A stretch of 25,615 nucleotides of DNA from a virus, in the UHGV virus genome UHGV-0137099. The stretch is one strand, 5' to 3'. Position numbers and translations under genes: made by a program. Positions 1,895 to 25,535 of the stretch are shown here, in pieces; within the stretch, counting starts at the first letter, position 1; each line of letters begins with the position of its first letter. The notes below the pieces were generated by a model. The model had not been told where the DNA came from. It made no database searches and saw nothing but the letters and a program-made list of their open reading frames with translations.

Positions 1895-2461
1895 TCAGCG
1901 CACCTGCAGTGAACGTTCGCCAATCTCAAGGTGAGCGCCCGGCACTGGGTTTAACAGTTCTTCCGGTATCTCTCCGCCGTCAGCGCTAATCTGGGCCGCT
2001 GCTGCCTGTGCTGATTCAATCGCTTCCTTGATGGCTTTCTTGTCCGGAGTGACTAACGTCTGAACTGTCACTAATTCATCCGGCAGTAATTCATCGTTAT
2101 CGATCACGACGTTTATAGCCCCCTTGCGTGCGGTAAAAGTATTTTTGGCGGTTTTAACCGTATCCTGACCGGCGGCCAGAAGGCACTGGAGAACATACTT
2201 CTTCAGGTTAGCGATCTTGCCTTCGAATGATTTTTTTCGGGCGGCGAGGCGTTTGGCCTCTTCATCGCAGGTTTTCGCCAGACCTTCCAGATTGCGAACG
2301 TGGACGAATACGGCATCCAGTTTATCGCCGAGTTGTAACTCGAGACCTTCCATTGTGTCGGCGATCATTTCCGGAGACAGACCAGAACCATCTTCATTTT
2401 CCAGAAGCGCCTGGAGTTTTGACATATCGGCAGCGATAGCAATAGCAGTAGTGGAAGTCAT
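1895..2461 (-). CDS. Hypothetical coiled-coil protein of the recombination module (possibly Gp157-like)
   Basis: 188 aa, acidic, helix-rich; start ATG overlaps the stop of the upstream annealase gene by 1 nt. Family assignment is by position next to an annealase only. Confidence 0.5.
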   Translation of the reverse strand: MTSTTAIAIAADMSKLQALLENEDGSGLSPEMIADTMEGLELQLGDKLDAVFVHVRNLEGLAKTCDEEAKRLAARKKSFEGKIANLKKYVLQCLLAAGQDTVKTAKNTFTARKGAINVVIDNDELLPDELVTVQTLVTPDKKAIKEAIESAQAAAAQISADGGEIPEELLNPVPGAHLEIGERSLQVR

Positions 2462-4611
2462 TATGCTTTCTCCTCGGCTTTATTCAGTTCCTTAATACGG
2501 CCATCCTTAATGGTGATGAGTCGGCGGAGTCGGCCAGACAGATAGCGTTCATGCTGCGTATCGCCGTTGGCCTGGGCGGCTTTAATGTGTACATCGATCT
2601 CACGTGCAATAGGGGAAAATACGCCATTGATTTCGTTCACCGTCACGCCATGCGCCAGGGTATTCGCAACGCGGCTTAATTTGTCGTCAAACTCCTGGCG
2701 AAGCCGTGCTGCATCTTCGGCTGATTCGCTGGCATTCTTCAGGTCAAACTCGGCCTTATTCTTCTGGCGGTACTCCAGATTGTCGTAAAGCCCCATAAAG
2801 ATATCGCCGCTGAATCCGAGGCCGGATAACGCTTTTTTGGTCGCATCAGTCAGTGATTTCTTGGCTGCTTCGCCGTCGCAGGTGATCCCATATTTACTGC
2901 CGTAGATGTAGGGTGTACAGCCGTATGCTGTTTCCTCACCTCGTACGCCGTTCAGGATGTACCAGAGCCGGACAGTCACAACATGGTGCTGTTCGTTGAC
3001 GGTATTACCATTCCCATCAAGAACCAGCTCCCACGATGCGTTGTTGTCTTTTCCTTTTACCTGGCGAGAGATCGGCGCGCCAATATCGAAACGCTCTTCA
3101 ACAATATCCACGCCCCAGCCGATACCCTTAGGGCCAAACTCACGGGTGGCGAGCATGGTCATGTAGGTACCGTTGATCGAGGTGCCACCGCCGTTCTGTG
3201 TGAAAGCCTTAGTAAACCTTTCGTCGGTTTTAAATACGCGTTTCCAGAGGTCTAAATTGTCTTCCCCGATGATTGGTTTTCCGACAGCCTGCACAACATC
3301 CTCAGCGTTAGGCAGGCTTTCAGCGTGAGCGATTTGTTTTGCTAAACGCTCGGAATCATCAGCCAGTTTTTCAGCCTTAACGCTTAACTTCTCTTCCGGC
3401 TCTGCACCTTCACCAGAGGCATATACGCCATAACCCATATCATTGAGCGTCTCACGCGCCTGTTTGGCCTGGGTGTCGGTTACAACCGGCTGCGGCGCTT
3501 CCACTTTTTCGCCCACGTTTGAGGCGGTATTTTGCGTCGCCTCTGGTTGTTTAACGGATCCTGTCTCGGTTTCCTCAAAGCGGCCGTTGGCCGCCAGCCA
3601 TGAATCGATATGGCGGCGCAGGCTGTCAGGGAAATGGTAGGTATCTTTCGCCGGTACGTTTTGTACCACGCCGAAGATGCTGGCGCGGTCGTATTTGAGT
3701 ATCTGCGGCGTGGTGTGCAGCGATGCTGACCAGCGTTTAAAATCTTCCCGGTCATCGGAAATCATCTTCTTAGCGTCCAGAAGGTTTCCGGATAGTACCG
3801 GCGCATCAGGCGCCAGCGGGAGAAGGGCGGTAGCGATCTCCTGATCCAGCGTTGCATAAGTGTGTTTATACCCGCGCTTAGAAATTACCACTGGCGTTTT
3901 ATCATCGGTGCTGGTGCTGAGAGCGGTATTTTTATATACGCCAGGGGCCAGTTCGTCGCGTTTGCCCGGATTCTCAAGCCAGCTTTTAACGAACTGAGAG
4001 ATAGCCGCTTTACCCGGCGTCTGGTTTTCAAAGTGGGAGAAAATACCCTGAATAAGATTGTTCAGACCTTCCACATGCATGCTTTGAATCGGGAAGTTAT
4101 TTTGCAGGGCGCACAGCACGTTAAAGTTGAAGCGGTCTTCTTCTTCAAATTCCCCATCGTGGTTTTTCAGGTTATCCAGATAATCCACAACCTGAGAATA
4201 AAGATGGCCATCAATCGCCGCGGTGCTAAAAAGCAGGACGGCAGCAAAGCGTTCTTCAGCGGAAACGGTCATAAGGTCGATCACTTCATCGTCGGCAGGT
4301 AAACCAGCACTACTTCCGGAAGCGCTATCCTGCACAGTAGAAATCCATTTTTCACCGTCAAAAGTATGCTGCTGGGCGAATGACTCATCGAACTGGCCAA
4401 CGGTAGGCAGCGGCTGGCCTTCAATGTGTTCCCACAGTTTCGGTTTGAAATAGTTGTCACCATTGGCCGGGTATGATTCCCAGAGTTTGCCGGTCATAAT
4501 GCTTTCGGCCACTTTTTTGTTTGGCGCATCGATTGCGATCGTCAGCTGAACGGCGCCGCAGTCTTTAATCGCCGATTTCTTTGGCTCAAATAAGCCGTTG
4601 TAGATGGTCAT
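2461..4611 (-). CDS. Rad52-family single-strand annealing protein with a ~450-aa N-terminal extension of unknown function
   Basis: C-terminal region FGPKGIGWG ... AYGCTPYIYGSKYG ... AAKKSLTDATKKALSGLGFSG resembles the Rad52 annealing core (FGYNGW ... KARKEAVTDGLKRALRSFG). Start chosen at ATG 4611 (MTIYNGLF...), which is directly preceded by GAGGAAAGACCA; the track's longer start at 4644 lacks this. Confidence 0.75.
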   Translation of the reverse strand: MTIYNGLFEPKKSAIKDCGAVQLTIAIDAPNKKVAESIMTGKLWESYPANGDNYFKPKLWEHIEGQPLPTVGQFDESFAQQHTFDGEKWISTVQDSASGSSAGLPADDEVIDLMTVSAEERFAAVLLFSTAAIDGHLYSQVVDYLDNLKNHDGEFEEEDRFNFNVLCALQNNFPIQSMHVEGLNNLIQGIFSHFENQTPGKAAISQFVKSWLENPGKRDELAPGVYKNTALSTSTDDKTPVVISKRGYKHTYATLDQEIATALLPLAPDAPVLSGNLLDAKKMISDDREDFKRWSASLHTTPQILKYDRASIFGVVQNVPAKDTYHFPDSLRRHIDSWLAANGRFEETETGSVKQPEATQNTASNVGEKVEAPQPVVTDTQAKQARETLNDMGYGVYASGEGAEPEEKLSVKAEKLADDSERLAKQIAHAESLPNAEDVVQAVGKPIIGEDNLDLWKRVFKTDERFTKAFTQNGGGTSINGTYMTMLATREFGPKGIGWGVDIVEERFDIGAPISRQVKGKDNNASWELVLDGNGNTVNEQHHVVTVRLWYILNGVRGEETAYGCTPYIYGSKYGITCDGEAAKKSLTDATKKALSGLGFSGDIFMGLYDNLEYRQKNKAEFDLKNASESAEDAARLRQEFDDKLSRVANTLAHGVTVNEINGVFSPIAREIDVHIKAAQANGDTQHERYLSGRLRRLITIKDGRIKELNKAEEKA

Positions 4612-4655
4612 TGGTCTTTCCTCTTGGTTTCTGGCGCAGGTCACGCGCCGGTTAA

Positions 4656-4979
4656 TTAAAACGGTACGTCGCTTTCTTCAATCGGAGAGTGATCGATGCA
4701 CAGCAGCTGCTGAATCTGGTCTTCAATAACACCCAGCTCCTTCTTAGCTTCGGCAGAGATTTTCTCTTTCTTCGCGCGAAGGGCATTAACCTGCATACCA
4801 ATAATGTCGATTGGTTCTAAAGCCGGGATGGCAACCTCTACCGTTTTGGTAGTAACGAGGACATACAGATCAGGGTATTGCTGTGACATGTCACAGGTGA
4901 ATGAGTGATAAGACGTTGGTAGATATGGGTTCGTTGTGGCCATAACGTAAACAGTTACGGGGATGGTAAGCGCTTCCAT
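4656..4979 (-). CDS. Hypothetical protein (107 aa)
   Basis: ORF on the operon strand with a strong SD (AAGGAG, 6-nt spacing) before ATG 4979. An alternative layout is an upstream 47-aa ORF from 5035 coupled to an internal ATG at 4889 (see findings). Confidence 0.5.
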   Translation of the reverse strand: MEALTIPVTVYVMATTNPYLPTSYHSFTCDMSQQYPDLYVLVTTKTVEVAIPALEPIDIIGMQVNALRAKKEKISAEAKKELGVIEDQIQQLLCIDHSPIEESDVPF

Positions 4980-5035
4980 AGCGACTCCTTGTTGATGTAT
5001 ACTCAGAGCCGATCAGTGTTGACTCTGTCGGCATT

Positions 5036-5427
5036 GGTCTTTCCTCATCACAAGCTTGGTCGCTTGTGATAAGTCCGAATGGTTTGGTCACCGTTCGGGG
5101 TAACTGGCCCGCCTTGTGCGGGCCTTTTGCCATCTAAAGGTTGCCGGTCTTTCCCGGCTGTCAGGGCTGGTCACGCCCGTTGGTCATTGGTCTTTCCTCC
5201 CGGTCTTTCCCGGCGCCAGAGCTGGTCAGGCTCGCTGGTCTTTCCTCACAGGCTCCCTCTTTTCGAGGGCTTCAGTTTTCACTGAACGGTCGCATAAATC
5301 TTTACTGTGTTAAAAAAATGCCCGGGGCGCCCGGGCCAAGACTACACACAGCAATTCGTATTCGTTGCGGTCTTTCCCGCATGTCATCGTACTGTCGGCG
5401 ACCCGAAGAATTCGTGCCCGTCTTTCC
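5036..5427. repeat. Array of at least 7 copies of the core GGTCTTTCC (minus-strand sense GGAAAGACC), several extended to CGGTCTTTCCCGG...CTGTCAG/GCTGGTC units
   Basis: Copies at 5036, 5146, 5189, 5202, 5237, 5369 and a degenerate one at 5419; the same core precedes start codons at 1499 and 4613. Confidence 0.8.
5312..5336 (-). terminator. Rho-independent terminator for leftward transcription
   Basis: GC hairpin GCCCGG-GGCGC-CCGGGC; on the minus strand it is followed by ATTTTTTT. Confidence 0.6.
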
Positions 5428-5581
5428 GGACTGTCAGAACTGTTTCTGAACAACTGCCGCGTGGTTAGTGCGTCGTTGATGTGATGTAATTTAGGTAAAT
5501 CTAACAAATTGGTCAATGATTAAATTAGAAAAAACGAACAATATGAGCGTAAAAAAATACATCTATCTGATTAGAAAGGGA

Positions 5582-5968
5582 TTATTTTTGTTTGCGGGCT
5601 TGCAGTAACTCTTCAAATAAACGATTGAAACCGTCTACTTTTTCGCGAAGTTCCGTTAAATGCCGCTCTTTTTCAGATTCAGGGAGTGACGAAAAGAGTT
5701 TTAAAAGCTCTGTTTCTCGTTCATCTAACGGCGGCGGGGTGTCTACCGGGGTTCCCGGAGTGGCGGCTTCATCGCCGTAAAGTATCCAGGTAGGGCTGCA
5801 TTGAAGTGCGTTACTTAAAGCGAATAGGTTTTTCCCGCCAGGCTCACTATCACCGGTCTCCCACTGGGAGATAGTGACGTGCGCGACGTTAACCAGCTTC
5901 GCTAAAGCGCGCTGAGTAAGTTTGAGATCTTTTCTACGCGCTCTGATGCGCTCACCTGGCATTGTCAT
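5582..5968 (-). CDS. Phage repressor, short XRE-family HTH protein without a LexA-like peptidase domain
   Basis: 128 aa; N-terminal HTH (LKLTQRALAKLVNVAHVTISQWETG); divergent from a Cro-like gene; no SD upstream of the ATG, so possibly leaderless like lambda cI from pRM. Confidence 0.8.
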   Translation of the reverse strand: MTMPGERIRARRKDLKLTQRALAKLVNVAHVTISQWETGDSEPGGKNLFALSNALQCSPTWILYGDEAATPGTPVDTPPPLDERETELLKLFSSLPESEKERHLTELREKVDGFNRLFEELLQARKQK

Positions 5969-5970
5969 AG

Positions 5971-6025
5971 TTAGATAATTCTAAATTTCCTTGACTTCGT
6001 TATCTCGAACACCTAATTTGTTAGG
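5971..6025. promoter_or_regulatory. Immunity-region operators and a rightward sigma70-like promoter (pR-like)
   Basis: Palindromes TTAGATAATTCTAA (5971-5984) and CCTAATTTGTTAGG (6012-6025); -35 TTGACT (5991-5996), 17-bp spacer, -10 TAATTT (6014-6019); SD CAGGAGGG before the cro-like ATG at 6049. Confidence 0.55.
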
Positions 6026-6048
6026 AAAATCTAACAGGAGGGTGTTTC

Positions 6049-6243
6049 ATGTTAACAACTGATGCGATCAAATATTTTGGTAGTAAGAGAAAACTGGCTG
6101 AGGCCGCTGGCGTTAAGGCTCCTACTGTCTATGCGTGGGGGCGTTTGGTTCCTGAAGGTAAAGCGGCTCGTTTGTCTCTGATGACTGATGGCGAACTTGT
6201 TTATGACCCAAAGGCTTACCAACTGCCAGCCAAATCAGCTTAA
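6049..6243 (+). CDS. cro: Cro-like repressor (P22 Cro family)
   Basis: 64 aa; IKYFGSKRKLAEAAGVKAPTVYAWGRLVPEGKAARLSLMTDGELVY parallels P22 Cro IDHFGTQRAVAKALGISDAAVSQWKEVIPEKDAYRLEIVTAGALKY (recalled from memory); divergent from the repressor. Confidence 0.8.
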   Translation: MLTTDAIKYFGSKRKLAEAAGVKAPTVYAWGRLVPEGKAARLSLMTDGELVYDPKAYQLPAKSA

Positions 6244-6305
6244 CAATTGGCGGCATCGAAATCTGATTACGCTTAATCAATTTTCAGCGACAGGAGACGC
6301 TCGAA

Positions 6306-6752
6306 GTGGAATACCTCGAAGAACTTAAACGAGAGATCTTTAACTGGGCAGCGGAAAGCGGGCAGGAGCTGGTTGCTATCGAGATAAGCCGCATGTGGTT
6401 TCGTCTTGGTGGTAATACCGGTTCGCTGAAGCTGCACCAGATCGAAGATGCAGATGGAAACGCCGACTGGCGGGCAATCAACAACAACCGCCAACAAATT
6501 TTTCGTTGGTTGAGAGGCGAGACCAAAGCCGCGAGAGCCAAAACTCTGGCGCTGGTCAAAGCGATGGAAGCGGCGCTGCCGGCAGAGCGTTACGCTCGCT
6601 TGGGTATGTCCACCCAGTATTTAATTTGTGTGGCCATTCGTGAGTTTGCCGCGGCGATTATCGCGTTGTTACTCGACGCCAGAGACGGGCCGCAGCAAGT
6701 CGCCAGAGCATTGCAAGCTATGCGAGAAACACAGCGCCTGACCAGCGTTTAA
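6306..6752 (+). CDS. Early regulatory protein, possibly CII-like / YdaT-family
   Basis: 148 aa with GTG start and AGGAG SD; sits where cII lies in lambdoid phages (right after cro). Family call is tentative. Confidence 0.45.
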   Translation: MEYLEELKREIFNWAAESGQELVAIEISRMWFRLGGNTGSLKLHQIEDADGNADWRAINNNRQQIFRWLRGETKAARAKTLALVKAMEAALPAERYARLGMSTQYLICVAIREFAAAIIALLLDARDGPQQVARALQAMRETQRLTSV

Positions 6753-6772
6753 CCTGTACCGAGGAAAGACCA

Positions 6773-6994
6773 ATGAGAACACAAGACCGCATCACCTGGC
6801 GGAACGGGTTTCGCCGGAACGGGGTACAAGTCCCGATAGAAGATATCGAATCGATTTTCGAGGAACGTCGCGCTACTGCGCTGACAATCTGGGAACGCTA
6901 TGAACTGCGTAAGGCAGACCTACAGGAAGCGGGACTCACCCAGAAAGAATACGAAATCGCCTGCCGCCAGCTGGCTGACTCGCTGGGGATTTGA
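6773..6994 (+). CDS. Hypothetical protein (73 aa)
   Basis: Start preceded by the conserved GAGGAAAGACCAATG module and an upstream GC hairpin. Confidence 0.5.
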   Translation: MRTQDRITWRNGFRRNGVQVPIEDIESIFEERRATALTIWERYELRKADLQEAGLTQKEYEIACRQLADSLGI

Positions 6995-6996
6995 CT

Positions 6997-7980
6997 ATGA
7001 GTATGACGCTTATGGCCAAAGCAATGGCAATCAAGACCGGAAACCCGATTCGAAAACTGGTGCTGATCAAACTGGCTGATAACGCCAATGATTACGGCGA
7101 ATGCTGGCCGTCTTACAAACATATTGCGGATCACTGCGAGTGCAGCAAAAGCGCGGTGCGTGACCATATCGATGCGTTAATTTCTATGGGCCTGCTGGTG
7201 AAAGAAAATCGCCCGGGCGTAAAAAACGGGAAGGGTAACGCGTCGAATTTGTACTGTATGAAACTTGATAACCCTATGCCGCCAAAAAGCATAGCCCCTA
7301 TGCCGTCAGAAAGCACAGGTATGCCGCCAAAAAGCATAGCCCCTATGCCGTGTGGCGGCACCAGAACCAGTCACTCTTTTGAACCAGTCATAGAACCTAA
7401 AGATCCCCCTAACCCCCAGACGGGGGAAGGCGATGAAAAAATTAATTCTGATGCTAAAAAAGCGCTGGATTTTTACAACGAGCAAACCGGTACCCGCTGC
7501 CGTGACCTGAAACCTTTTGTGATGATGCTGACGCCGACCACCACCCGGGAAGGTTACACCCTGGACGAATTGCAGTTAGTTATCCGCTGGGTGCTGGCCA
7601 CATGGCGCCGCCGTGGCGATAGCCTGCCGAAGCCAGCGAACATCTGCCGGGTAAACCGCTTTGATGGTTATCTTGCTGACGCTGAAGCATGGGCGGTGAC
7701 AGAAACCGATATTGATCCGGAAGCCGTTATGAACGGCTACAACGAAATTTTTGCTGACGTTCTGCCTGCTGCTGAACTGGACACCGACCGCCGCCGGATG
7801 ATCACCCGACTTGCCGCCCACATGAAAAACAAAACCACGGGCGCATTTCTGGGTTATTTCGAAAAATTCCGCGCTGACGCCTCCGATTTTTACTTTGGTG
7901 AAAATGGCGGATGGCGCGCCAGCTTTGACTATCTGATGAAACCAGAGACATTGCGTAAGACCAGGGAGGGCGCTTTATGA
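6997..7980 (+). CDS. Replication initiation protein (lambda O-like role), N-terminal winged-helix DNA-binding domain
   Basis: N-terminus IRKLVLIKLADNANDYGECWPSYKHIADHCECSKSAVRDHIDALISMGLLV looks like an HTH replication-initiator domain; contains internal iteron-like DNA repeats; directly followed by a DnaB-like helicase with ATGA overlap. Start could be TTG 6991, ATG 6997 or ATG 7003. Confidence 0.7.
   Translation: MSMTLMAKAMAIKTGNPIRKLVLIKLADNANDYGECWPSYKHIADHCECSKSAVRDHIDALISMGLLVKENRPGVKNGKGNASNLYCMKLDNPMPPKSIAPMPSESTGMPPKSIAPMPCGGTRTSHSFEPVIEPKDPPNPQTGEGDEKINSDAKKALDFYNEQTGTRCRDLKPFVMMLTPTTTREGYTLDELQLVIRWVLATWRRRGDSLPKPANICRVNRFDGYLADAEAWAVTETDIDPEAVMNGYNEIFADVLPAAELDTDRRRMITRLAAHMKNKTTGAFLGYFEKFRADASDFYFGENGGWRASFDYLMKPETLRKTREGAL
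7272..7350 (+). repeat. Iteron-like repeats inside the initiator gene (candidate origin of replication)
   Basis: 30-bp unit ATGCCGCCAAAAAGCATAGCCCCTATGCCG occurs twice (7276-7305, 7321-7350), built from alternating CTATGC / GCATAG half-sites; followed by an AT-rich stretch around 7430-7480. Confidence 0.55.
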
Positions 7981-9383
7981 TGCAGATGATGTATTCCACT
8001 CAGGAACTGGAATGTCTGGTTCTTGGCTGCCTGATGAACGGTGGCGCCACGCCAGACGCCTTTGATGTGATTGCCAGCACTCCGAGCGAAGCTTTCAGCG
8101 TCGCATACTACAGGCAGATTTACGGTGTGATCAAAGCGCAGGCCTTGAGCGGCGGCTTAATTGACATGATGTACATTAGCGAAGCCATTGGCGGACAGGG
8201 GACGCTGGCCAATCTCGCCGATATTTGCAAATTCCCGACATCGATCGTCAATCTCAAAGGCTACGCCAAAAAAATGGTTAAGGCCTGGCGAAGCAGAACC
8301 ATCGCGCAATTACTCCAGGATGGTGCGGATGGTATTCGTGATGCGATAAACCAGGAACAGCGCGATCAGGTTGTCGAAACTGCCGTTGCGCAGCTGCTGG
8401 ACATGACCGGCGACACTGGCGACGTGCAGCCGGTACATATCAGCGAATTATTGCCGGTGTACATGGAAACCATTCAGAAGCGCATGGACGGTGAAGAGGG
8501 TACCCGCAACCTGAAAACCGGGATCGACGAGCTGGATGAAGTCACTGGAGGTTTTAACCCACAGGATTTGATTGTTGTCGGTGCACGCCCGGGTATGGGA
8601 AAAACCGAGCTTGCGCTGAAGATTGTCGATGGTGTTACCGCTGCCGGCGGTGGAGTGTTGATATTCAGCATGGAAATGGCCGCTGCGCAAATCTTAGAAC
8701 GCTCTCTGGCGGGTTCTGGCAACATGTCAGTGTCACGCCTGCGTAATCCCCTCGATATGCAGGACGAGGACTGGGCGCGCTTTACAGCGGCCATGGAGAC
8801 CATGAACGGGCGCGATATCTGGATCGTTGATGCTACCGATCTGACGATTGAGCAAATCCGCGCCGTTGCCGAAACGCATAAGCGCCGGTATCCGCATCTG
8901 GCGATGATCGTTGTCGATTACCTTGGCCTGATTAAAAAACCGAAGGCAGAGCGTAACGACCTCGCGATCGCCCACATATCCCGAAACCTTAAAACTATGG
9001 CTATGCGCCTGCATACGCCGACTTTCGCGCTTAGCCAGCTTTCCCGCGCTGTGGATTCCCGCCCAGCGGCCCAGCGCCGCCCGGTCATGTCAGATCTGCG
9101 CGATTCAGGTTCTATTGAGCAGGACGCCGACAGCATCATGTTTCTGTATCGCGATGAGGTTTACAACCCGGAAAGCCCGGCGGCTGGCGTCGCTGAAATT
9201 ATCCTGGGTAAAAGCCGCTTCAGCGCCGCAGGCGCAATTATTTATCAGGAATTTAAAAACGGACACTTTCTGTCTATGGATCAGCATGTTGGCAAAGAGA
9301 AAACACGTATCCAACTGGAGGCCGCGAAACCCCGGAAACAACCCCGTAAATACTCTGAGAAATTCAATACCGATGCATTTTAA
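7977..9383 (+). CDS. Replicative DNA helicase, DnaB family
   Basis: 468 aa; Walker A GARPGMGKT, Walker B-like IVVDYLGL, helicase C-terminal motifs (SQLSRAVDSR, SDLRDSGSIEQDAD). Confidence 0.93.
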   Translation: MMQMMYSTQELECLVLGCLMNGGATPDAFDVIASTPSEAFSVAYYRQIYGVIKAQALSGGLIDMMYISEAIGGQGTLANLADICKFPTSIVNLKGYAKKMVKAWRSRTIAQLLQDGADGIRDAINQEQRDQVVETAVAQLLDMTGDTGDVQPVHISELLPVYMETIQKRMDGEEGTRNLKTGIDELDEVTGGFNPQDLIVVGARPGMGKTELALKIVDGVTAAGGGVLIFSMEMAAAQILERSLAGSGNMSVSRLRNPLDMQDEDWARFTAAMETMNGRDIWIVDATDLTIEQIRAVAETHKRRYPHLAMIVVDYLGLIKKPKAERNDLAIAHISRNLKTMAMRLHTPTFALSQLSRAVDSRPAAQRRPVMSDLRDSGSIEQDADSIMFLYRDEVYNPESPAAGVAEIILGKSRFSAAGAIIYQEFKNGHFLSMDQHVGKEKTRIQLEAAKPRKQPRKYSEKFNTDAF

Positions 9384-10327: not shown

Positions 10328-10494
10328 AATTTTCAACACCTGATTTTATGCATTGCAGCCGCAGGACGCTGATGCTGTTCGTACTCAGTGCAAATGTTGT
10401 TGGCTGGATAGTCATTATCGCTCTTATTTGGGCTGGATGTGAGGTTGTGCAGTGGGCGCTGGAATATCTCCGCAGTAGTGGGGTGCTGGCGTGA
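10324..10494 (+). CDS. Small predicted membrane protein (56 aa)
   Basis: ATG overlaps the upstream stop (ATGA); hydrophobic core LMLFVLSANVVGWIVIIALIWAG; its stop overlaps the next start (GTGA). The track's longer start at 10147 would overlap the upstream gene. Confidence 0.4.
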   Translation: MKFSTPDFMHCSRRTLMLFVLSANVVGWIVIIALIWAGCEVVQWALEYLRSSGVLA

Positions 10495-11081
10495 ATAACA
10501 AATACACCTTGATTTATGCGGATCCGCCCTGGACGTACCGCGATAAAGCCAAAGATGGCGAGCGTGGCGCCGGGCATAAATACCAGACCATGACTGTGCT
10601 CGATATCTGCCGTCTCCCGGTCTGGGAACTGGCCGCTGAAAACTGCCTGCTGGCTATGTGGTGGGTGCCGACTCAGCCGCTGGAGGCGTTGCGAGTAGTC
10701 GAGGCGTGGGGCTTCCGTCTGATGACCATGAAAGGCTTTACGTGGAACAAATGCTACAGCCGGCAGACCGACAAACTGGCCCTCGGAATGGGCCATATGA
10801 CCAGAGCGAACAGCGAGGATTGCCTTTTCGCTGTGCAGGGGAAATTACCCGCCCGGCTGGATGCCGGGATCGTTCAGTCATTCGTGGCCCCGCGTCTGGA
10901 GCATTCGCGCAAACCGGATATCGTGCGCGAAAAGCTGGTGCAGCTGCTGGGCGATGTACCGCGTATTGAGTTATTCGCCCGCCTGTCGTCGCATGGTTTC
11001 GACGTGTGGGGTAATCAGTGTGAATCGCCAGCGGTGACGCTGCTGCCGGGCATTGCAGAATATATCGGGGAGGTAGCATAG
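10491..11081 (+). CDS. MT-A70-family N6-adenine DNA methyltransferase
   Basis: 196 aa; catalytic DPPW motif (LIYADPPWTY) and downstream conserved blocks typical of the MT-A70 family; GTG start. Confidence 0.8.
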   Translation: MNNKYTLIYADPPWTYRDKAKDGERGAGHKYQTMTVLDICRLPVWELAAENCLLAMWWVPTQPLEALRVVEAWGFRLMTMKGFTWNKCYSRQTDKLALGMGHMTRANSEDCLFAVQGKLPARLDAGIVQSFVAPRLEHSRKPDIVREKLVQLLGDVPRIELFARLSSHGFDVWGNQCESPAVTLLPGIAEYIGEVA

Positions 11082-11264
11082 ATGGCAGATTTTAGCGCAA
11101 CCAAAAGAACCGCGTCGCTCGAAGATTGGGGCGACGCGCTGGAATTAATCGTCGAATTAAATGGTAAATCATTCGATATCACAGAAATGGAGATTGAAGC
11201 CGCTTACGAGGCATATAAGCGAGTTGATGATTTTTTTTATGACGAATGGGGTGATGATCAATGA
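11082..11264 (+). CDS. Small very acidic protein (60 aa; 17 Asp/Glu against 5 Lys/Arg)
   Basis: ORF exactly filling the gap between the two methyltransferase genes; composition counted from the translation. Confidence 0.5.
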   Translation: MADFSATKRTASLEDWGDALELIVELNGKSFDITEMEIEAAYEAYKRVDDFFYDEWGDDQ

Positions 11265-12094
11265 TTGAAAAAAAAATCAGGCATCCTGTAATCAGATATC
11301 ACGGCGGGAAATTCCGACTGGCACACTGGATTATCGAGCAGATGCCGGACCACGTCTGCTATGTCGAACCGTTCGGCGGCGCTGCTGGCGTATTGCTTCA
11401 AAAATCGCGTAGCTATTCAGAGGTGTACAACGATCTCGACGGCGAGGTGGTGAACCTGTTTCGTGTGTTGCGCGACCCTGAATTAAACCAGCGCCTGCAG
11501 GATGCCTGTTGCCTGACCCCGTATTCACGCGATGAGTTCTGTCACGCTCAGCAACCAGCCACTAACCCTATCGAACGCGCCCGCCGTATGGTGGTTCGTG
11601 CCTGTATGGGGTTCGGCTCTGCCGCAGGTATCGGCGGTCAATCCGGCTTCCGCAGCGACAGCAAACGCAAATACGCTACGGCGGCGCATCTATGGGAGCG
11701 TTACCCGGCTAATCTCGCTGTTGTCTGTCAGCGCCTTCAAGGAGTCATCATCGAGAACAAAGACGCTCTGGCGGTAATGCGCGCCCACGACGCAGAAACG
11801 ACGCTGCATTACATCGATCCGCCATATATGCCGGAAACACGAGTGCAGAAAAATCGTTATTACAACCATGAAATGACCGTTGAAGGGCATGAGCAATTGC
11901 TCGCTGTGTCCAGAACGATGAAAGGCATGGTGATGATTAGCGGTTACGACACTGATGTCTACAACGACATGCTATCCGGCTGGGCGAAGACCGAGAAAGC
12001 ATCGCGCATCAGTGCCGGTCGCGGTATGAAAGTCCGTACTGAATGCCTCTGGCTTAACCCTGCAGCACAACAGAAACAGGAGCGTGCAGCATGA
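11261..12094 (+). CDS. Dam-like (D12 class) N6-adenine DNA methyltransferase
   Basis: 277 aa; SAM-binding motif EPFGGAAGV and catalytic DPPY (HYIDPPYM). Confidence 0.88.
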   Translation: MIEKKIRHPVIRYHGGKFRLAHWIIEQMPDHVCYVEPFGGAAGVLLQKSRSYSEVYNDLDGEVVNLFRVLRDPELNQRLQDACCLTPYSRDEFCHAQQPATNPIERARRMVVRACMGFGSAAGIGGQSGFRSDSKRKYATAAHLWERYPANLAVVCQRLQGVIIENKDALAVMRAHDAETTLHYIDPPYMPETRVQKNRYYNHEMTVEGHEQLLAVSRTMKGMVMISGYDTDVYNDMLSGWAKTEKASRISAGRGMKVRTECLWLNPAAQQKQERAA

Positions 12095-12869: not shown

Positions 12870-13466
12870 ATGGCGCAGTATTCTTTTGTAAAAGCACCCG
12901 GCGGTGTATTAATTCCGGCAACGCCTGACGCCCGCGATTTTTTAGAAAAAAAAGTCCGCCTGGGCGGTATTTTGTATGCAGATTTTAAGCAGGCAAGAAA
13001 CCCGGCATTTCACCGTAAATTTTTTGCCCTCCTGAATCTTGGATTTGATTACTGGCAACCTTCCGGCGGTGCAATATTGCCAGCTGATAAAAAACTGGTT
13101 CGTGGTTATGTGCAACTGGTAGCCCACTATGCCGGGCATGCAGACACGTTGCAGGAACTGGCGGATCAGTACCTCCGCGATGAGGCAGAAAAACGCGCAG
13201 GGAATATCAGCGCTGTTAAATCGTTTGAAGCATTCCGTTCCTGGGTAACTATCGAAGCTGGTTTTTATACCGAATACCAGATGCCTGATGGCACCACCCG
13301 CAAAGAACCCAAATCCATATCGTTCGCAAAAATGGACGATGTAGAATTCTCCCAGCTGTATAAATCCGTATTAGACGTCCTCTGGAATTTTATTCTATTC
13401 CGCACCTTCCCCAATCAGCAGGCAGCGGAAAACGCAGCCTCTCAGCTTTTCAGTTATGCGGCCTGA
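12870..13466 (+). CDS. Hypothetical phage protein (198 aa)
   Basis: Long clean ORF with SD AAAGGGGA upstream; no catalytic motif recognised. Confidence 0.6.
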   Translation: MAQYSFVKAPGGVLIPATPDARDFLEKKVRLGGILYADFKQARNPAFHRKFFALLNLGFDYWQPSGGAILPADKKLVRGYVQLVAHYAGHADTLQELADQYLRDEAEKRAGNISAVKSFEAFRSWVTIEAGFYTEYQMPDGTTRKEPKSISFAKMDDVEFSQLYKSVLDVLWNFILFRTFPNQQAAENAASQLFSYAA

Positions 13467-13476
13467 GGCGGACACT

Positions 13477-13953
13477 ATGAAATTCAATATTCGCTCTCAG
13501 ATCGTCGAAATGGATGTGGCCGACGCCCTGAATTTTGTGGGTTACCCCATCCACATTGGCTCGAATGGCTATGCAAAAGTCACCGGCTGGCATTTTGGCA
13601 AGGAAAGATACCTTCATCGCGTCATCATGAATGCGGGACCTCAGGATGTTGTTGATCACATTGATGGTAATAAGCTCAACTGCTCCCGCTCAAATTTGAG
13701 GATCTGCACACAGTCAGACAATACCAAAAACGTTGGTTTGAGGAGTGACAATAGCTCGGGAATTCCGGGAGTTTACTGGGTACCCACTCGCCTCAAATGG
13801 GCGGCGCAAATTTCAGTTGATGGCAGGACTGTTAGTTTAGGCCGCTTTGATGAAATGGCCGATGCTATCGATGCCCGCCGGAAAGCAGAAGATTTGTATT
13901 ACGGGGAGTTTGCAGCCAGCAAGGGGGTGCTTTGTGAAAAAGCGCACCAGTAA
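13477..13953 (+). CDS. HNH endonuclease with C-terminal AP2 DNA-binding domain (homing-endonuclease-like)
   Basis: HNH block HRVIMNAGPQDVVDHIDGNKLNCSRSNLRICTQSDNTKN; AP2-like block GIPGVYWVPTRLKWAAQISVDGRTVSLGRFDEMADAIDARRKAEDLYYGEFA. Start set at ATG 13477, after the upstream stop. Confidence 0.8.
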   Translation: MKFNIRSQIVEMDVADALNFVGYPIHIGSNGYAKVTGWHFGKERYLHRVIMNAGPQDVVDHIDGNKLNCSRSNLRICTQSDNTKNVGLRSDNSSGIPGVYWVPTRLKWAAQISVDGRTVSLGRFDEMADAIDARRKAEDLYYGEFAASKGVLCEKAHQ

Positions 13954-19665: not shown

Positions 19666-20229
19666 ATGGCTTCCAGTATCTCTATCTGTTCTAACGCACT
19701 GCTAGCGCTCGGCGCCCATCCCATTAACAGCTTCGACGAAGCGACCGAACACGCCCGCCTGTGCTCCAATATTTACCCTACCGTACGCAATGACCTGCTG
19801 CGAAAACATCCGTGGAACTGCGCGGTAAAACGCGTTGTGCTCTCACCGTCCAGCACCGCGCCCGCATTTGGTTTCGGCTACCAGTTCCCGCTACCGGGCG
19901 ATTTAATCCGGATCCTTTCCGTTGGCCGCGAATATGAGGATATCGGGTACCGCGTCGAAGGAAACCGCCTGCTGGCGAACCAGAACGTGATTTATCTGCG
20001 CTACCTGTTCCGTAACGAGGATGAATCAACGTGGGATTCGTCGCTGGTCAATCTGGCCGAAGCATTTATGGCCGCAAAACTGGCGTATGCCGTCACCGGC
20101 TCCGCGAGTCTGCGCGACAGTCTGACGCAGGAAGCTGCATACCTTCTTCGCCAGGCTAAATCTATCGACGGGCAGGAAGAACCGCCGGAAACACTGGACG
20201 GCTTTCCAACTTATGAATCGAGGTTCTGA
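19666..20229 (+). CDS. Putative tail tubular protein A-like (adaptor/nozzle component)
   Basis: 187 aa directly after capsid and terminator; SD GAGGTAAGG; assignment by size and gene order. Confidence 0.45.
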   Translation: MASSISICSNALLALGAHPINSFDEATEHARLCSNIYPTVRNDLLRKHPWNCAVKRVVLSPSSTAPAFGFGYQFPLPGDLIRILSVGREYEDIGYRVEGNRLLANQNVIYLRYLFRNEDESTWDSSLVNLAEAFMAAKLAYAVTGSASLRDSLTQEAAYLLRQAKSIDGQEEPPETLDGFPTYESRF

Positions 20230-22220
20230 TGCGCGCGAACCTGATAAAAACCAATTTTACAGCCGGGGAAATTTCCCCGCGCCTGATGGGCCGTGTTGAT
20301 ATCGCCCGCTATGCCAACGGTGCAAAAATTATCGAAAACGCGGTGTGCGTGGTGCAGGGCGGTGTCGTTCGCCGACCGGGTACGCGCTTTGCCGCTGCCG
20401 CTAAATATGGTGACCGGACAGCACGACTGATCCCCTACGTCTTTAACCGCTCGCAGGCGTACATGCTCGAATTCGGCGACGGATACCTGCGCATTTACCA
20501 GAACGGCCGGCAGCTGGTAAACGAAGACAATACCCCGTATGAAATCGCCAGCCCGTACACCGTCGATATGTTGTCTGAGGTGAATTACGTGCAGGGTGCT
20601 GACACGATGTTTTTAGTGCACCAGAGCGTCCCGCCGCACCGCTTGCAGCGTAAGGGGCAAACTGATTGGGTACTGGAAGCCGCGCCGTTTATCGTTGAGC
20701 CATTCGACGAAATCCGCGACACGCCGGAGAAATGGTGTAAGCCATCCGTTAAAGAATTCGTTGGCTCAGAAATCACGCTGACGCTCAGTGATGCCGAACC
20801 CGCAGATGGTGACGATTCCCCCGCGTTTACTGGCACCGGCTGGGTAGCGGAGGACGTTGGTTCGTACGTTCGCATTAACAGTGGTCTGGTGCTGATTAAG
20901 AGCATCACCAGCGCGCAGGTCGCAGTCGGTACCATCCGCACCGATTTAAGCGCGACGCAGGCGGCATCCCCCGGAGCCTGGACACGTGAAGATACTGTCT
21001 GGACGGAGGAATTTGGCTACCCCGGCGCGGTGACGCTGTACCAGCAGCGACTGGTTCTGGCTGGTTCCCCACAGTACCCGCAAACAATTTGGTGGAGCGA
21101 AACCGGCGTTTACCTGTCGTTTGAGCTGGGAACGGACGACGACGACGCGATCAGCTTTACGCTGTCTTCTGACCAGTTAAACCCAATTGTGCATCTGGCG
21201 CAGATGAATACGCTTATCGCGCTGACGTACGGCGGCGAGTTTACGATCACCGCTGGCAGCGACGCGGCAATCACGCCCACCAATATTTCGGTAAAAAATC
21301 CCAGCCCGTACGGTTGCAACAGCATTCGCCCGGTTCGCGTCGGTACCGAAATTATGTTTATCCAGCGTGCCGGGAAAAAACTGTATGCCGTGGCGTATGA
21401 CCCCGACAGCTACGTTTCGTATTCCGCCAATGATTTAACGGTGCTGGCCGAACACATCACGGCCGACGGCGTTCTCGATATGGCGTATCAACAACAGCCT
21501 GATGCGTTCGTGTGGCTGATCCGCGCCGATGGCGTACTGGTTACGATGGGAATAGACCGGGCGCAGGATGTTGTCGCATGGTCACGTCAGATCACCGATG
21601 GCGTTTTTGAATCGGTGGCGAGTATTCCCTCGGAAAGCGATGACGTGATTTATGTGCTGGTGCGCCGGGAAGTTAACGGCCAGACCGTTCGTTATGTTGA
21701 AGTATTCGACAACACCCTGAATACCGATTCCGCCGTAACCGGCTCCAGTTCAGAAGGTGCCACCACATGGACAGGCCTTTCTCATCTCAATGGAAAAACG
21801 GTTGATGTGGTGGCCGATGGTTCCGTGATGCCACAGGCAACGGTAACAGACGGGCAAATCACTCTCAGCCGCAAAGCAAAAAAAATCGAAGTCGGCCTGC
21901 ATTATGAAACCACCATTCAGACACTGACGCCGGAAATCTCAACGACCGAAGGTACCACGCAGAACGCCCGCAAGCGTACCAGCGAAGTCACGCTGCGCTT
22001 TATGGAAACCACCGGCGCAGAGTGCAACGGTCAGGTGATCCCGTTTCGTACCTTCGGCCCAAAAATCCTTAACCAGCCCGCACCGCTTTTCACCGGTGAT
22101 CATTATTTCGGGAAACTTGGCTGGGAGCGTGGGGAAGACACTTTGATTATTCAGCAACGCCAGCCGCTGCCGTTTCACCTGCTGGCGATTATTTTCACGT
22201 TCTCCAGCAACGGGGGGTAA
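20229..22220 (+). CDS. Putative tail tubular protein B-like / major tail-tube component
   Basis: 663 aa, translationally coupled to the previous gene (stop/start overlap); assignment by size and order. Confidence 0.45.
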   Translation: MRANLIKTNFTAGEISPRLMGRVDIARYANGAKIIENAVCVVQGGVVRRPGTRFAAAAKYGDRTARLIPYVFNRSQAYMLEFGDGYLRIYQNGRQLVNEDNTPYEIASPYTVDMLSEVNYVQGADTMFLVHQSVPPHRLQRKGQTDWVLEAAPFIVEPFDEIRDTPEKWCKPSVKEFVGSEITLTLSDAEPADGDDSPAFTGTGWVAEDVGSYVRINSGLVLIKSITSAQVAVGTIRTDLSATQAASPGAWTREDTVWTEEFGYPGAVTLYQQRLVLAGSPQYPQTIWWSETGVYLSFELGTDDDDAISFTLSSDQLNPIVHLAQMNTLIALTYGGEFTITAGSDAAITPTNISVKNPSPYGCNSIRPVRVGTEIMFIQRAGKKLYAVAYDPDSYVSYSANDLTVLAEHITADGVLDMAYQQQPDAFVWLIRADGVLVTMGIDRAQDVVAWSRQITDGVFESVASIPSESDDVIYVLVRREVNGQTVRYVEVFDNTLNTDSAVTGSSSEGATTWTGLSHLNGKTVDVVADGSVMPQATVTDGQITLSRKAKKIEVGLHYETTIQTLTPEISTTEGTTQNARKRTSEVTLRFMETTGAECNGQVIPFRTFGPKILNQPAPLFTGDHYFGKLGWERGEDTLIIQQRQPLPFHLLAIIFTFSSNGG

Positions 22221-23168: not shown

Positions 23169-25535
23169 GTGAGAATTCCAACGGGTAATTTTGGCAATGT
23201 GACACCGCAGGCACAGCAGACGCGTGTCGCTGTTAGCAACGTAGGCACGATCGGCAATGCGGTGTCTGGTTTTGGGGCCGCCACAGGACAGGTAGCAGAA
23301 CAAGTACAGCATGAGCAGGATAAAGCCGATGTGGCAGCCACACAGGCTATTTTGACCGATCTGGAAGCTAAATCTAATGACCGCTGGGAAAACCCGGAGA
23401 CTGGCGCCACGGTCACGCGTCAGGGCTTTAAATCGTCCGGTGTGGTCACCGATATGGATAAGGCCGACGCTGGCGATTACGAGGAAGCGCGGAAGCGCGT
23501 ACCGCCCAACCAGTTAAACTATTTTGATGCGCAGTGGAAAGCGGGGCAGATACGCCGGACAAGCACCTATAGCGGTTTCGAGCGTGCGCAGACGGATGAG
23601 GCCCAGCGACAGCAGCTGAATGCGACGGTGACCACTTCCGTTGAACAGGAGGCCAGCGCCTACGATAACCCAATGCAGGCAGGGCTGATACGCAGCGCCC
23701 GTAAACACTCGATCGAGATGTATGGCCAGGCGCGTGGTTGGGCCCAAGAGCGCATCGACGCGGCGGTATCAGAAGCGAATCAAAAAGCGCTGGAGCAGCG
23801 AGCGCAGAACTACGCGGTAACCAATCCCACTGGCTGGCTGAATGGCGATTTTACGTTGATTAACAGTAGCACCGGCGAACTAGATATGCGCGCCGTTGGC
23901 CTGGTGGAGTCCGGTGGTAAGCACCGCAATGCGGATGGTAGTCTTGTTACATCGCCCGCTGGCGCGCAGGGTGAATTTCAGTTGATGCCGGACACAGGGA
24001 AAGAACTGGCGGCTAAACGTGGCGTGGAATACAACCCGGACGATCCTGTGCAGCATGCGCAGCTGGCGCGTGATTATGCCGGGCAGCTCAGTAAAAAATA
24101 CCAGTCAGAACCACTGGCCGGGGCCGCGTATAACTGGGGGATGGGTAACGTCGATAAACTGATCGCCAAAGTGGGCGACCCGCGCAAAGGCGAAATCTCG
24201 ATGGCGGATTTCGTTAAGCAGCTGCCCGCAGAAACGCGCGGTTGGTTGTCCCGCTACAACAAAAATAAAACCGGTCTCGACCCGGTAGCAGTAAACAAAA
24301 TCGACAATATCGCCGAAGCGCAGATCCGGCAGCAGCGTACGGCGCTGCGCCAGCAGATTGACCCGATTCTCAATAATACAATGGCGCAGCTGTATAACGG
24401 CGAGGTGCCGGATGCTATGCCGAACGCCTCCACCATTTTGTTTGCGTACGGTGAGCAGGGGCAAACAGCGGTCAAGCAGCTGGATATCGCGATTGATAAC
24501 GCCAGAACCTTCCAGGCTATTCAGTACGCCACCCCGGCAGAACAGCAGGCCGAACTGGCGAAAGTGAAGCCGCAGGCAAACGATCCCGATTTTGCGCTAA
24601 AACTTGATGCACACGGCAAACTTAGCGCGCTGGTGCAGAAGAGCAACGCCAATATTCAGGCGCAGCGCGACTCCGCCCGCTTTAACGATGCGCTGCTCTC
24701 CGGCGAGAAACTCGACCCGAGCAATAAATCTATGCAGAGGGCGGCGGACAATACGCCATCGGCGCTTAATTTCCGCATTAACGATGCAACCACCCACGAT
24801 GCTATCGTACAGCAGGTAAACCAGACCGGCATTGTTCCGTCGCAGGTAACATCACAGCTCAATGCTATTTCCCGCTCCAGTAGCTCAGATGTAGTGAAGC
24901 AAGGCGCTGAAATATTCAATAGGCTTTACGACTCTAAATCTTCTAACGTCAGTGATATGCCAAAAGATATACAAAGTTTTTATCTGACAATTAAGCAATT
25001 GACCGAAGCTGGTATGGCTTCTGATGAGGCAGTGAAACAGGCACAGAATATAACCTATAATCAGAACGATGCATTAAAAAATCAGTTAACTTCGACGCAG
25101 AGCACTAAAGAATATAAAAGCGAGCGAGATAGTGCTATGGATTCAGCTCGAAATAGTATGGCTCAGTGGTTCAGAATTGATCCAAAGGCAAGCGATACAA
25201 CAACTGATGCAGTTAATTTTCGAAATGACTACCAGTCCCTTTACGATATCAACTATCGAAATTCTGGTGGGAATTCTGAAATTGCCAAAAAAATGACCAA
25301 CACTCAAATCTCTCGTAACTGGAGCATTAGCGAAGTGAACGGCAAGGCCCAGTTCATGAAATATGCACCAGAAGCACTATATAACTTTGGTCCGTCAGGT
25401 TGGCAGGCTGAACTGTGGAAAGAAAAAAAAGAGGAACTAATGTATGGCGAGCGTAATAAGGAGATCTCTACCAGCCCAACGCAGTTAGGGAAGGTGCGAA
25501 TAAGCAGGTCATTTCTTCCCAAGCTGACTCGCTGA
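23169..25535 (+). CDS. Internal virion protein with lytic transglycosylase (SLT) domain
   Basis: 788 aa, GTG start; SLT-type motifs GEFQLMPDTGKEL ... AYNWGMGNV; the C-terminal ~200 codons are markedly AT-rich. Confidence 0.75.
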   Translation: MRIPTGNFGNVTPQAQQTRVAVSNVGTIGNAVSGFGAATGQVAEQVQHEQDKADVAATQAILTDLEAKSNDRWENPETGATVTRQGFKSSGVVTDMDKADAGDYEEARKRVPPNQLNYFDAQWKAGQIRRTSTYSGFERAQTDEAQRQQLNATVTTSVEQEASAYDNPMQAGLIRSARKHSIEMYGQARGWAQERIDAAVSEANQKALEQRAQNYAVTNPTGWLNGDFTLINSSTGELDMRAVGLVESGGKHRNADGSLVTSPAGAQGEFQLMPDTGKELAAKRGVEYNPDDPVQHAQLARDYAGQLSKKYQSEPLAGAAYNWGMGNVDKLIAKVGDPRKGEISMADFVKQLPAETRGWLSRYNKNKTGLDPVAVNKIDNIAEAQIRQQRTALRQQIDPILNNTMAQLYNGEVPDAMPNASTILFAYGEQGQTAVKQLDIAIDNARTFQAIQYATPAEQQAELAKVKPQANDPDFALKLDAHGKLSALVQKSNANIQAQRDSARFNDALLSGEKLDPSNKSMQRAADNTPSALNFRINDATTHDAIVQQVNQTGIVPSQVTSQLNAISRSSSSDVVKQGAEIFNRLYDSKSSNVSDMPKDIQSFYLTIKQLTEAGMASDEAVKQAQNITYNQNDALKNQLTSTQSTKEYKSERDSAMDSARNSMAQWFRIDPKASDTTTDAVNFRNDYQSLYDINYRNSGGNSEIAKKMTNTQISRNWSISEVNGKAQFMKYAPEALYNFGPSGWQAELWKEKKEELMYGERNKEISTSPTQLGKVRISRSFLPKLTR

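Follow-up and report, generated by a model that had tools for sequence, protein, structure and literature searches.

The analysed stretch of DNA, UHGV virus genome UHGV-0137099 (25,615 nucleotides, hereafter the window), encodes on its minus strand a 716-amino-acid (aa) protein in which an N-terminal module of the RecE/YdfE type is fused to a Rad52-type single-strand annealing domain, and its gene (2461-4611) is directly followed by a gene of the Sipho_Gp157 family (Gp157). We consider it probable that this protein is a Rad52 annealase carrying the RecE-type module (N-module) as an adaptor, and that it forms with Gp157 a two-gene recombination (Rec) module without a nuclease. The integrity of the gene, the identities of its domains, the swapping of the N-module, purifying selection and strict synteny with Gp157 are directly established. 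A preliminary description of the window had given the coordinates and the length of the protein correctly and had left the strand unstated. The features on which the argument rests are the following.

2461-4611, minus strand: whole gene, encoding the 716-aa fusion of the RecE-type N-module and a Rad52 annealase (open reading frame (ORF) and translation; TAA stop at 2463-2461)
4616-4625, minus strand: ribosome-binding site AAGAGGAAAG, read from the sequence, preceding the ATG at 4611
4333-4611, minus strand: N-module sub-domain D1, residues 1-93, small alpha/beta fold
3937-4299, minus strand: N-module sub-domain D2, residues 105-225, helical (predicted local distance difference test score (pLDDT) 86-96 per 10-residue block; ratio of nonsynonymous to synonymous substitution rates (dN/dS) 0.07-0.08)
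3577-3879, minus strand: N-module sub-domain D3, residues 245-345, helical, the part most clearly shared with RecE (NCBIfam, PHROG and BLASTP)
3277-3576, minus strand: acidic linker, residues 346-445, mostly disordered and hypervariable, containing the peptide QARETLNDMGYGVYASG (379-395)
2752-3276, minus strand: Rad52/Sak-type single-strand annealing core, residues 446-620, with the signature KKSLTDATKKALSGLGF (AlphaFold2, Foldseek and profile comparison)
2464-2751, minus strand: conserved helical C-terminal tail, residues 621-716, with a YLSGRLRRL motif (AlphaFold2 helices, family identity and dN/dS)
1895-2461, minus strand: Sipho_Gp157 family gene, 188 aa (Pfam PF05565, E 5e-35), overlapping the fusion gene in TAATG at 2461

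A predicted Rad52/Sak-type annealing domain at the C-terminus

The AlphaFold2 (AF2) model of residues 441-716, built with 39 sequences, had a pLDDT of 89.8 and contained the fold of the Rad52 N-terminal domain with its beta-hairpin, three-stranded sheet and long groove helix. When the PDB was searched with Foldseek, all eight matches with E ≤ 0.001 were human RAD52's N-terminal domain (E 2e-6 to 1e-5, probability 1.00, target-normalised template modelling (TM) score 0.46-0.61), and the next match had an E value of 0.04. The same domain was found by tblastn (residues ~450-640) as standalone proteins of ~240 aa in Pseudomonas, Vibrio, Azospirillum and Sulfitobacter phages, the alignment of which displays the motif KKSLTDAxKKxLSxLGF. 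A profile made from these standalone homologs returned human RAD52 as its five top matches among PDB sequences, aligned over the whole beta-hairpin/helix core. This alignment included a K-x-x-x-TD-x-x-K-K/R-A-L motif, in which K584, K592 and K593 face K144, K152 and R153 of RAD52, and it placed EFGPKGIGWG of the 716-aa protein opposite EMFGYNGW of RAD52. Across 26 diverse fusion proteins K584, K585 and K593 were invariant and K592 nearly so, and the F-G...G-W motif was invariant in the fusion family.

The homolog from Vibrio phage D80 scored 19.3 bits against PF04098 (cut-off 20.3), many standalone homologs have precomputed PF04098 matches, and one of them is named a Rad52/Rad22 family protein by NCBI. 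Judged by sequence, the C-terminal domain is a divergent member of the PF04098 family, and the predicted structure confirms it as a true Rad52/Sak-type annealing domain that is nearer to Rad52/Sak than to Erf. The Rad52-family assignment that had been proposed for this region was borne out. Its placement in the C-terminal third also agreed with the model, in which residues about 446-620 make up ~24% of the protein, or 38% with the helical tail, and the statement that phage annealases normally have 200-250 aa fits the standalone homologs of this domain (about 230-310 aa). Among such proteins the long N-terminal extension is unusual.

With the Rad52/Sak family (human RAD52, Sak of lactococcal phage ul36, PF04098) the domain shares the fold and the signature helix, KKSLTDAxKKALSxLGF against RKEAVTDGLKRALRSFG in RAD52, with the groove lysines aligned, and its standalone relatives have the ~240 aa of typical phage single-strand annealing proteins (SSAPs). 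Unlike that family, the window protein adds a 445-aa N-terminal part (RecE-type module plus linker) and a ~95-aa family-specific helical tail, and domains of its type are always accompanied by Gp157 rather than by an exonuclease. The helices of the tail were predicted at residues 612-653, 658-681 and 685-715 (model positions 172-213, 218-241 and 245-275), with pLDDT 91-96 from residue 641, and residues 621-716 are a candidate partner-binding region.

A RecE/YdfE-type module at the N-terminus

The N-terminal two thirds had been described as acidic and without a recognisable motif. The acidity is real, with an isoelectric point (pI) of 5.1 for residues 1-345 and 4.45 for residues 346-445; the lack of a motif is not, since the region is homologous to the N-terminal region of RecE and YdfE. 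BLASTP aligned residues 247-320 with residues 256-332 of Rac RecE (E 2e-4). With the 'exonuclease VIII' of phage Tritos (823 aa) it gave an alignment of residues 10-374 to residues 11-379 at 28% identity (E 6e-27). PHROG 2082 and 607, both RecE-like families, matched residues about 233-381. NCBIfam PRK09709 (exodeoxyribonuclease VIII) matched residues 246-359 only (E 7e-11), at 40.9 bits against a cut-off of 1269 bits, which sets the protein apart from the PRK09709 equivalog. Precomputed Pfam matches assign proteins 85-97% identical to the window protein to PF27430 (YdfE_N), and more distant fusion members to YdfE_N alone or with YdfE_C (PF27432); membership of the window protein in these families is by proxy, through its relatives. 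A fusion-family protein of 775 aa (P0249) links the two ends of this comparison: it is 49% identical to residues 1-518 of Rac RecE, then continues into a Rad52 domain, and is 35% identical to the window protein over the full length, with higher identity in the Rad52 part.

The AF2 model of residues 1-450 (pLDDT 80.6) contained three confident sub-domains. D2 aligned with the N region of Tritos/YdfE-type proteins, and D3 had a pLDDT of 88-97 over residues 251-330 that fell at both ends. A Foldseek search of the viral predicted structures in BFVD with the N-module gave nothing below E 1e-3. For residues 1-450, structure prediction and profiles yielded three folded sub-domains and the homology to RecE/YdfE, and no fold match.

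The pLDDT of the linker that follows was under 60 over most of its length, a short helix being predicted at 379-391; across the family the linker is 87-214 aa long with 20% mean pairwise identity. Short peptides recur inside it. The pattern [NS]LGxG[KR]FSIDGL was present in the linkers of 14 of the 26 fusion-family representatives (chance about 1.8% per sequence), the QARETLNDMGYGVYASG peptide in the window protein and several relatives, and GRGEFV(D/E)GISDPNDPKW in both Rac RecE (residues ~460-480) and RecE-like fusion members. These conserved peptides may be docking motifs for a partner.

Residues 1-345 are a non-catalytic RecE/YdfE N-terminal module (YdfE_N/YdfE_C, related to PF06630). In Rac RecE, PF06630 ('Exonuc_VIII') covers residues 2-178, and the actual nuclease is DUF3799 (PF12684) at residues 615-850. 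The Pfam scan detected no DUF3799 PD-(D/E)XK nuclease domain in the window protein, which has the Rad52 fold at its C-terminus instead. The name 'exonuclease' borne by the fusion family, including PHROG 2489, which matches the 716-aa protein over its full length (E=0), has been inherited from homology to the end of RecE that is not the nuclease.

These data bear on the proposal that the N-terminal extension is a novel nuclease, making the protein a self-contained exonuclease-plus-annealase. Such proteins are named exonucleases in PHROG 2489, 2082 and 607, by NCBI and in several phage records, and the operon encodes no other nuclease. The label, however, derives from RecE residues 2-178 and not from its nuclease. 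When 26 fusion proteins with identities down to 25% were aligned, A35 was the single invariant column in residues 1-345, compared with 44 invariant columns in the Rad52 part and tail (452-698); the N-module has no conserved Asp, Glu, His or Lys in this alignment and no nuclease fold. A nuclease here would also be redundant where the same module is joined to two different genuine exonucleases, and Zheng et al. 2025 describe 'RecE-2' proteins as having no nuclease domain according to AlphaFold 3 (PMC12315714). We regard a nuclease in the N-terminal region as very unlikely.

Swapping of the N-module between effectors

Comparison of domain architecture among homologs revealed that the N-module is a portable unit attached to four different effectors: a PD-(D/E)XK nuclease in Rac RecE and SPN3UB RecE, an Rv2179c-like DEDD 3'-5' exonuclease in Tritos and P0449, a complete RecT domain in P0476 (632 aa), and the Rad52 domain in the window protein, P0249 and relatives. 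A search of a large protein database with the N-module profile returned mainly partial RecE entries of ≤ 700 aa, and the C-terminal partners given here are anecdotes rather than a census. The RecT-bearing proteins P0476 and P0479 combine PF06630 (2-178) with the whole RecT domain (416-607) and have no nuclease; they are either an independent fusion of the N-module to an annealase or the product of an in-frame deletion in a cryptic prophage.

Rac RecE has an N-terminal region homologous to that of the window protein, and its gene occupies the same genomic position as the fusion gene, between cI/kil-type genes and xis-int. It differs in that the window protein has a Rad52 annealase in place of the PD-(D/E)XK nuclease (DUF3799), and in that the window operon has Gp157 next to the fusion gene instead of a recT gene. 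The Rac locus runs recE, recT, further genes, xis and int, and the P0249 locus runs lambda-Gam, fusion, Gp157, xis and int. The Rad52 domain plus Gp157 thus occupies the place that the nuclease domain plus RecT has in Rac, with the junction lying inside the gene. A split form, in which neighbouring genes encode the N-module and Rad52 separately, was looked for and not found; apparent cases were rejected as an insertion-interrupted gene or divergent fusions.

Tritos/YdfE-type proteins of Escherichia coli lambdoid prophages (PHROG 2082) are 28% identical to the window protein over the entire three-sub-domain N-module, and their Pfam families YdfE_N and YdfE_C are also found on fusion-family members. 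Unlike the window protein, they end in the Rv2179c-like DEDD exonuclease, and in Table 1 of Zheng et al. they stand alone as 'nuclease-only' Rec modules (PMC12315714). In SynExo-type pairs such as lambda Red and RecET the gene for the cognate 5'-3' exonuclease is adjacent, whereas the neighbour at the window locus is Gp157; Pfam and PHROG scans found no nuclease gene beside the fusion in the window operon, and none was found at four other family loci.

A related arrangement was observed in Pseudomonas phage F116 (L001), where positions 3983-8535 carry a standalone Rad52-like gene and genes for a 338-aa protein with a weak DUF1351 match and a 184-aa protein without a Pfam match, and continue with a DnaQ/RNase_T-type exonuclease, SSB and RdgC. 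An annealase with a DEDD exonuclease in trans echoes the N-module::DEDD fusions.

Strict pairing with Gp157

The fusion and Gp157 genes overlap by one base (GCATAATGACT, TAATG), a GAGGAG site lies within the upstream gene, and the Gp157 gene is translationally coupled to the fusion gene. With hidden Markov models built here, every one of the 76 loci that reach far enough (53 with the fusion and 23 with the standalone form) was found to have Gp157 directly downstream of the Rad52 gene. Gp157 was also seen in 4/4 metagenomic or genomic contexts, and the arrangement recurs in annotated phages. Its homologs also adjoin a RecT-like annealase in HK639 and other RAD52-like annealases. Phages HK140, HK639 and mEpX1 carry Gp157 homologs that were apparently termed 'MuGam' by Zheng et al. 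(PMC12315714).

In that source, nuclease-less Rec modules are common in lambdoid phages (84/246; PMC12315714). Modules of this kind, such as Erf plus Abc in P22 and 'SAP-4 + MuGam' in HK140, resemble the window locus in pairing an annealase with a small accessory protein where a phage nuclease is absent; unlike them, the window annealase bears the RecE N-module.

The strict pairing could also be read to mean that Gp157 is the active component and that the Rad52-fold domain does not anneal here, serving as an oligomerisation ring or a DNA-end binder, for example in replication restart; that the phage also encodes NinB/Orf would fit. The lysines of the DNA groove and the F-G...G-W motif, characteristic of Rad52/Sak proteins that are competent for annealing, are nevertheless invariant, the related phage Rad52-like proteins Sak, Erf and Red-beta are demonstrated annealases (PMC2896510), and the pairing of Gp157 homologs with RecT-type annealases (HK639) suits an SSAP accessory. 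A non-annealing Rad52 domain is highly improbable on these grounds.

Distribution and purifying selection of the fusion family

An exhaustive search of 1.84 billion representative proteins returned 2440 relatives. Among the 150 matches listed, about 30 clusters at 50% identity were the full fusion (667-814 aa), and most others were standalone Rad52-like proteins of 230-310 aa. With one genome per species, the full-length fusion was present in at least 53 Enterobacterales species-representative genomes from more than 20 genera, among them Raoultella, Citrobacter, Serratia, Yersinia, Pectobacterium, Proteus, Providencia, Xenorhabdus, Photorhabdus, Pantoea, Erwinia and Rahnella; Pseudomonas genomes carried the standalone form. 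The isolated, viable Pectobacterium phage ZF40 encodes a 721-aa 'putative exonuclease' (gp07) that matched the window protein over its entire length (35% identity, E 1e-121); the gene after it is a Gp157 64% identical to that of the window.

Mean pairwise identity in the family was 31% in D1, 21% in D2, 26% in D3, 20% in the linker, 54% in the Rad52 core and 50% in the tail. Relative to three orthologs, residues 1-345 had a dN/dS of about 0.11, with 0.06-0.12 in the single sub-domains; the linker had 0.12-0.23, the Rad52 core about 0.07 and the tail 0.03, values that are approximate because dS was near 1. The N-module is fast-evolving and yet clearly under purifying selection.

These data argue against the view that the gene is a chimera without function, left behind in a decaying prophage when a recE gene and a Rad52/Gp157 cassette underwent illegitimate recombination. 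Phage rec modules are described as highly mosaic in PMC12315714, identity to different orthologs varies by region within the gene, and disrupted copies exist. Intact ORFs of 667-814 aa nonetheless persist to about 25-30% identity and in at least 53 species genomes, each folded part has a dN/dS of about 0.1, the viable phage ZF40 carries the gene, and the ribosome-binding site and translational coupling are intact. We rate a relic as the least probable of all the explanations considered.

Within the window gene the tail was 95% identical to that of Stenotrophomonas phage vB_SmeS_BUCT708 (OM816834.1; L010) and 72% to that of Raoultella (L017), and D3 was 92% identical to Raoultella and 86% to BUCT708, a mosaic that indicates recombination breakpoints inside the gene. 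Damaged copies were seen in Enterobacter sichuanensis (L021), with an insert of ~1.3 kb in the Rad52 domain, and in Citrobacter murliniae (L022), where the protein ends at 513 aa. The alphaproteobacterial assembly of Martelella alba (L028) has, on a 12-kb contig, a full-length copy with 40% identity that looks like contamination or recent transfer. BUCT708 shares the entire int-to-DnaB region with the window (fusion 80% and Gp157 94% identity). The window has a GC content of about 52% and Stenotrophomonas genomes about 66%, so that the recorded host of BUCT708 looks doubtful or the phage is of enterobacterial origin.

Proposed function of the fusion protein

We propose that the fusion protein is the single-strand-annealing recombinase of the prophage, and we infer its annealing activity, its oligomerisation, the adaptor role of the N-module and the dependence on host nucleases. 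After induction the Rad52 domain would, by analogy with RAD52 and Sak, form rings or short filaments, hold single-stranded DNA in its basic groove (K584, K592 and K593) and anneal complementary strands. The single-stranded DNA would come from host nucleases or replication forks, and the annealing would be put to use in genome circularisation, concatemer formation and mosaic exchange. The N-modules, each with three small folded sub-domains, would hang around the oligomer on flexible acidic linkers of ~100 aa and act as adaptors or tethers rather than enzymes, through which the oligomeric effector would bind a partner, a host factor or a second DNA molecule. Gp157, with its translationally coupled gene, would be the second component of this nuclease-less Rec module.

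An adaptor or tether is the most economical reading because the N-module is fused to four unrelated end-processing effectors. It also fits the only functional clue to the homologous region of RecE: neither nuclease action nor RecE function in genetic tests requires this N-region, which yet enhances linear-linear recombination (PMC11611040; PMC11610958).

Several points weigh against the proposal. The 716-aa protein had no PF04098 match at E ≤ 0.1 in the Pfam scan, the profile match to RAD52 among PDB sequences was weak (E about 0.26), and phmmer with the 716-aa protein against PDB sequences gave only noise; because the family match is absent and the sequence match weak, the Rad52 assignment draws mainly on predicted structure, in which RAD52 accounted for 8/8 significant fold matches. 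The adaptor role derives only from the swapping pattern and the lack of catalytic features, and in the literature the homologous part of RecE is itself described as 'unknown/unclear' in function (PMC11611040; PMC11610958). Kinship of Gp157 with Mu Gam was unsupported as well. The window Gp157 belongs to PHROG 253, labelled 'Mu Gam-like end protection', and Mu Gam itself is PHROG 491; hhalign gave a probability of 3%, and of 0.65% with richer profiles, and we treat the label as unverified because of the separate PHROGs and these two low values. The Gp157 profile matched only coiled-coil noise in the PDB.

The main rival explanation is that the N-module and acidic linker serve an anti-host or counter-defence function, as an inhibitor of RecBCD or another nuclease, a DNA mimic or a decoy. 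The mean identity of 21-31% in the N-module and 20% in the linker, against 54% in the Rad52 part, is a pattern that would suit a host-interaction surface; the linker has an acidic pI (4.45), and the early-left operon is the usual place of anti-RecBCD genes (PMC12315714). The better performance specifically of full-length RecE in linear-linear recombination could also mean protection of linear DNA (PMC11611040; PMC11610958). The region has, however, no similarity to Gam, Abc2 or known inhibitors, no PADLOC match (0) and no fold match; the P0249 locus already encodes lambda Gam upstream of the fusion, and the fact that the module is always joined covalently to DNA-end effectors points to a role in cis with them. 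An anti-host function is unlikely.

A bolder extension of the adaptor reading, which we put forward tentatively and hold to be rather doubtful, is that the N-module is a general 'recombination hub' that recruits a host factor (for instance a nuclease/helicase, SSB or the replisome) or bridges DNA ends and so opens DNA ends to any effector attached to it, that in the Rad52 fusion host resection replaces a phage exonuclease, and that Gp157 is an obligate SSAP cofactor, so far unrecognised, and not a Gam-like inhibitor. If true, this would explain why full-length RecE, and not the nuclease domain alone, promotes linear-linear recombination.

Operon and prophage setting

The longest form of the ORF, 2461-4644 (minus strand), opens at a GTG upstream of the ATG at 4611. 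The ATG start gives 716 aa with the N-terminal residues MTIYNGLFEPKK, and distant homologs begin with the same MT(I/V)Y..FEPKK, in agreement with this start; on the plus strand, stops occur throughout 2461-4611. The gene lies in the early-left operon, with cI (5582-5968) on one side and xis-int (int 253-1269) on the other. As had been noted before, the operon has no separate exonuclease gene: Pfam and PHROG scans between cI and int found no nuclease, RecT or SSB gene. One further gene of the operon precedes the fusion, and BUCT708 carries a comparable small gene upstream of its own.

4656-4979, minus strand: upstream gene of the same operon, 107 aa, PHROG 2479 (E 1e-53)

Between cI and the recombination genes we observed a sigma-70-like promoter match and then a perfect 7-bp all-GC hairpin followed by ATTTTTTT, terminator-like (coordinates of the pair: 5336-5320 and 5516-5488, both minus strand), which may be an early-left terminator under antitermination. 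A smaller hairpin, GGCGCgtgacctGCGCC (4649-4632), lies directly upstream of the ribosome-binding site of the 716-aa gene.

The window is a prophage of Klebsiella type, with tRNA-Leu (35-121) adjoining the integrase, a cI/cro/cII-YdaT switch, O-like and DnaB replication genes, NinB/Orf and podovirus-like structural genes. In its nin region, a gene for a NinB/Orf-type recombination mediator (PHROG 319; 12870-13466, plus strand) overlaps an HNH endonuclease gene (13456-13953, plus strand), which indicates further phage recombination functions outside the early-left operon. Two closely spaced DNA adenine methyltransferase genes, 10491-11081 and 11261-12094 (plus strand), belong to the MT-A70 family and the D12/Dam-like class, and are presumably anti-restriction functions. 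A 788-aa protein (23169-25535, plus strand) labelled 'endolysin' in PHROG 1044 follows T7-like tail-tube genes (19666-22220); this placement favours an internal virion or ejection protein that has a lytic domain over a lysis endolysin.

Annotation and significance

The preliminary description called the N-terminal domain uncharacterised. The architecture is catalogued, as PHROG 2489, as Pfam YdfE_N and as an NCBI 'exonuclease family protein', but it is mis-named and uncharacterised. The database names 'exonuclease' and 'exodeoxyribonuclease VIII' are misleading for the fusion family, and literature searches on Gp157 with Rad52, YdfE, the RecE N-terminal domain and ZF40 found no description of a fusion of the RecE N-module to Rad52. 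In Zheng et al., 'RecE-2' proteins are said to resemble RecE without a nuclease domain and are assigned no role (PMC12315714). In Table 1 of the same paper ZF40 has the sole 'anti-RecBCD only' module, with the strand-annealing protein scored absent, although gp07 of ZF40 is the RecE-N-module::Rad52 fusion. If 'RecE-2' is the fusion family, its annealase domain has gone unnoticed.

The analysis corrects an annotation error: hundreds of prophage proteins of Klebsiella and other Enterobacterales, together with gp07 of ZF40, carry an annealase and no nuclease domain. The ~350-residue N-terminal region of RecE emerges as an independently mobile, selected module on four DNA-end effectors, and this swapping constrains what the region can do in RecE and provides natural chimeras for testing. 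The 76/76 synteny and the coupling make Gp157, which is very common in phages, a candidate for a partner dedicated to Rad52-type annealases. For recombineering, the fusion family offers a candidate system that is native to Klebsiella and its relatives. The main value lies in the pattern of module swapping and the obligate pairing with Gp157, more than in the existence of the annealase, and both offer a comparative route into two old puzzles, the RecE N-terminus and Gp157.

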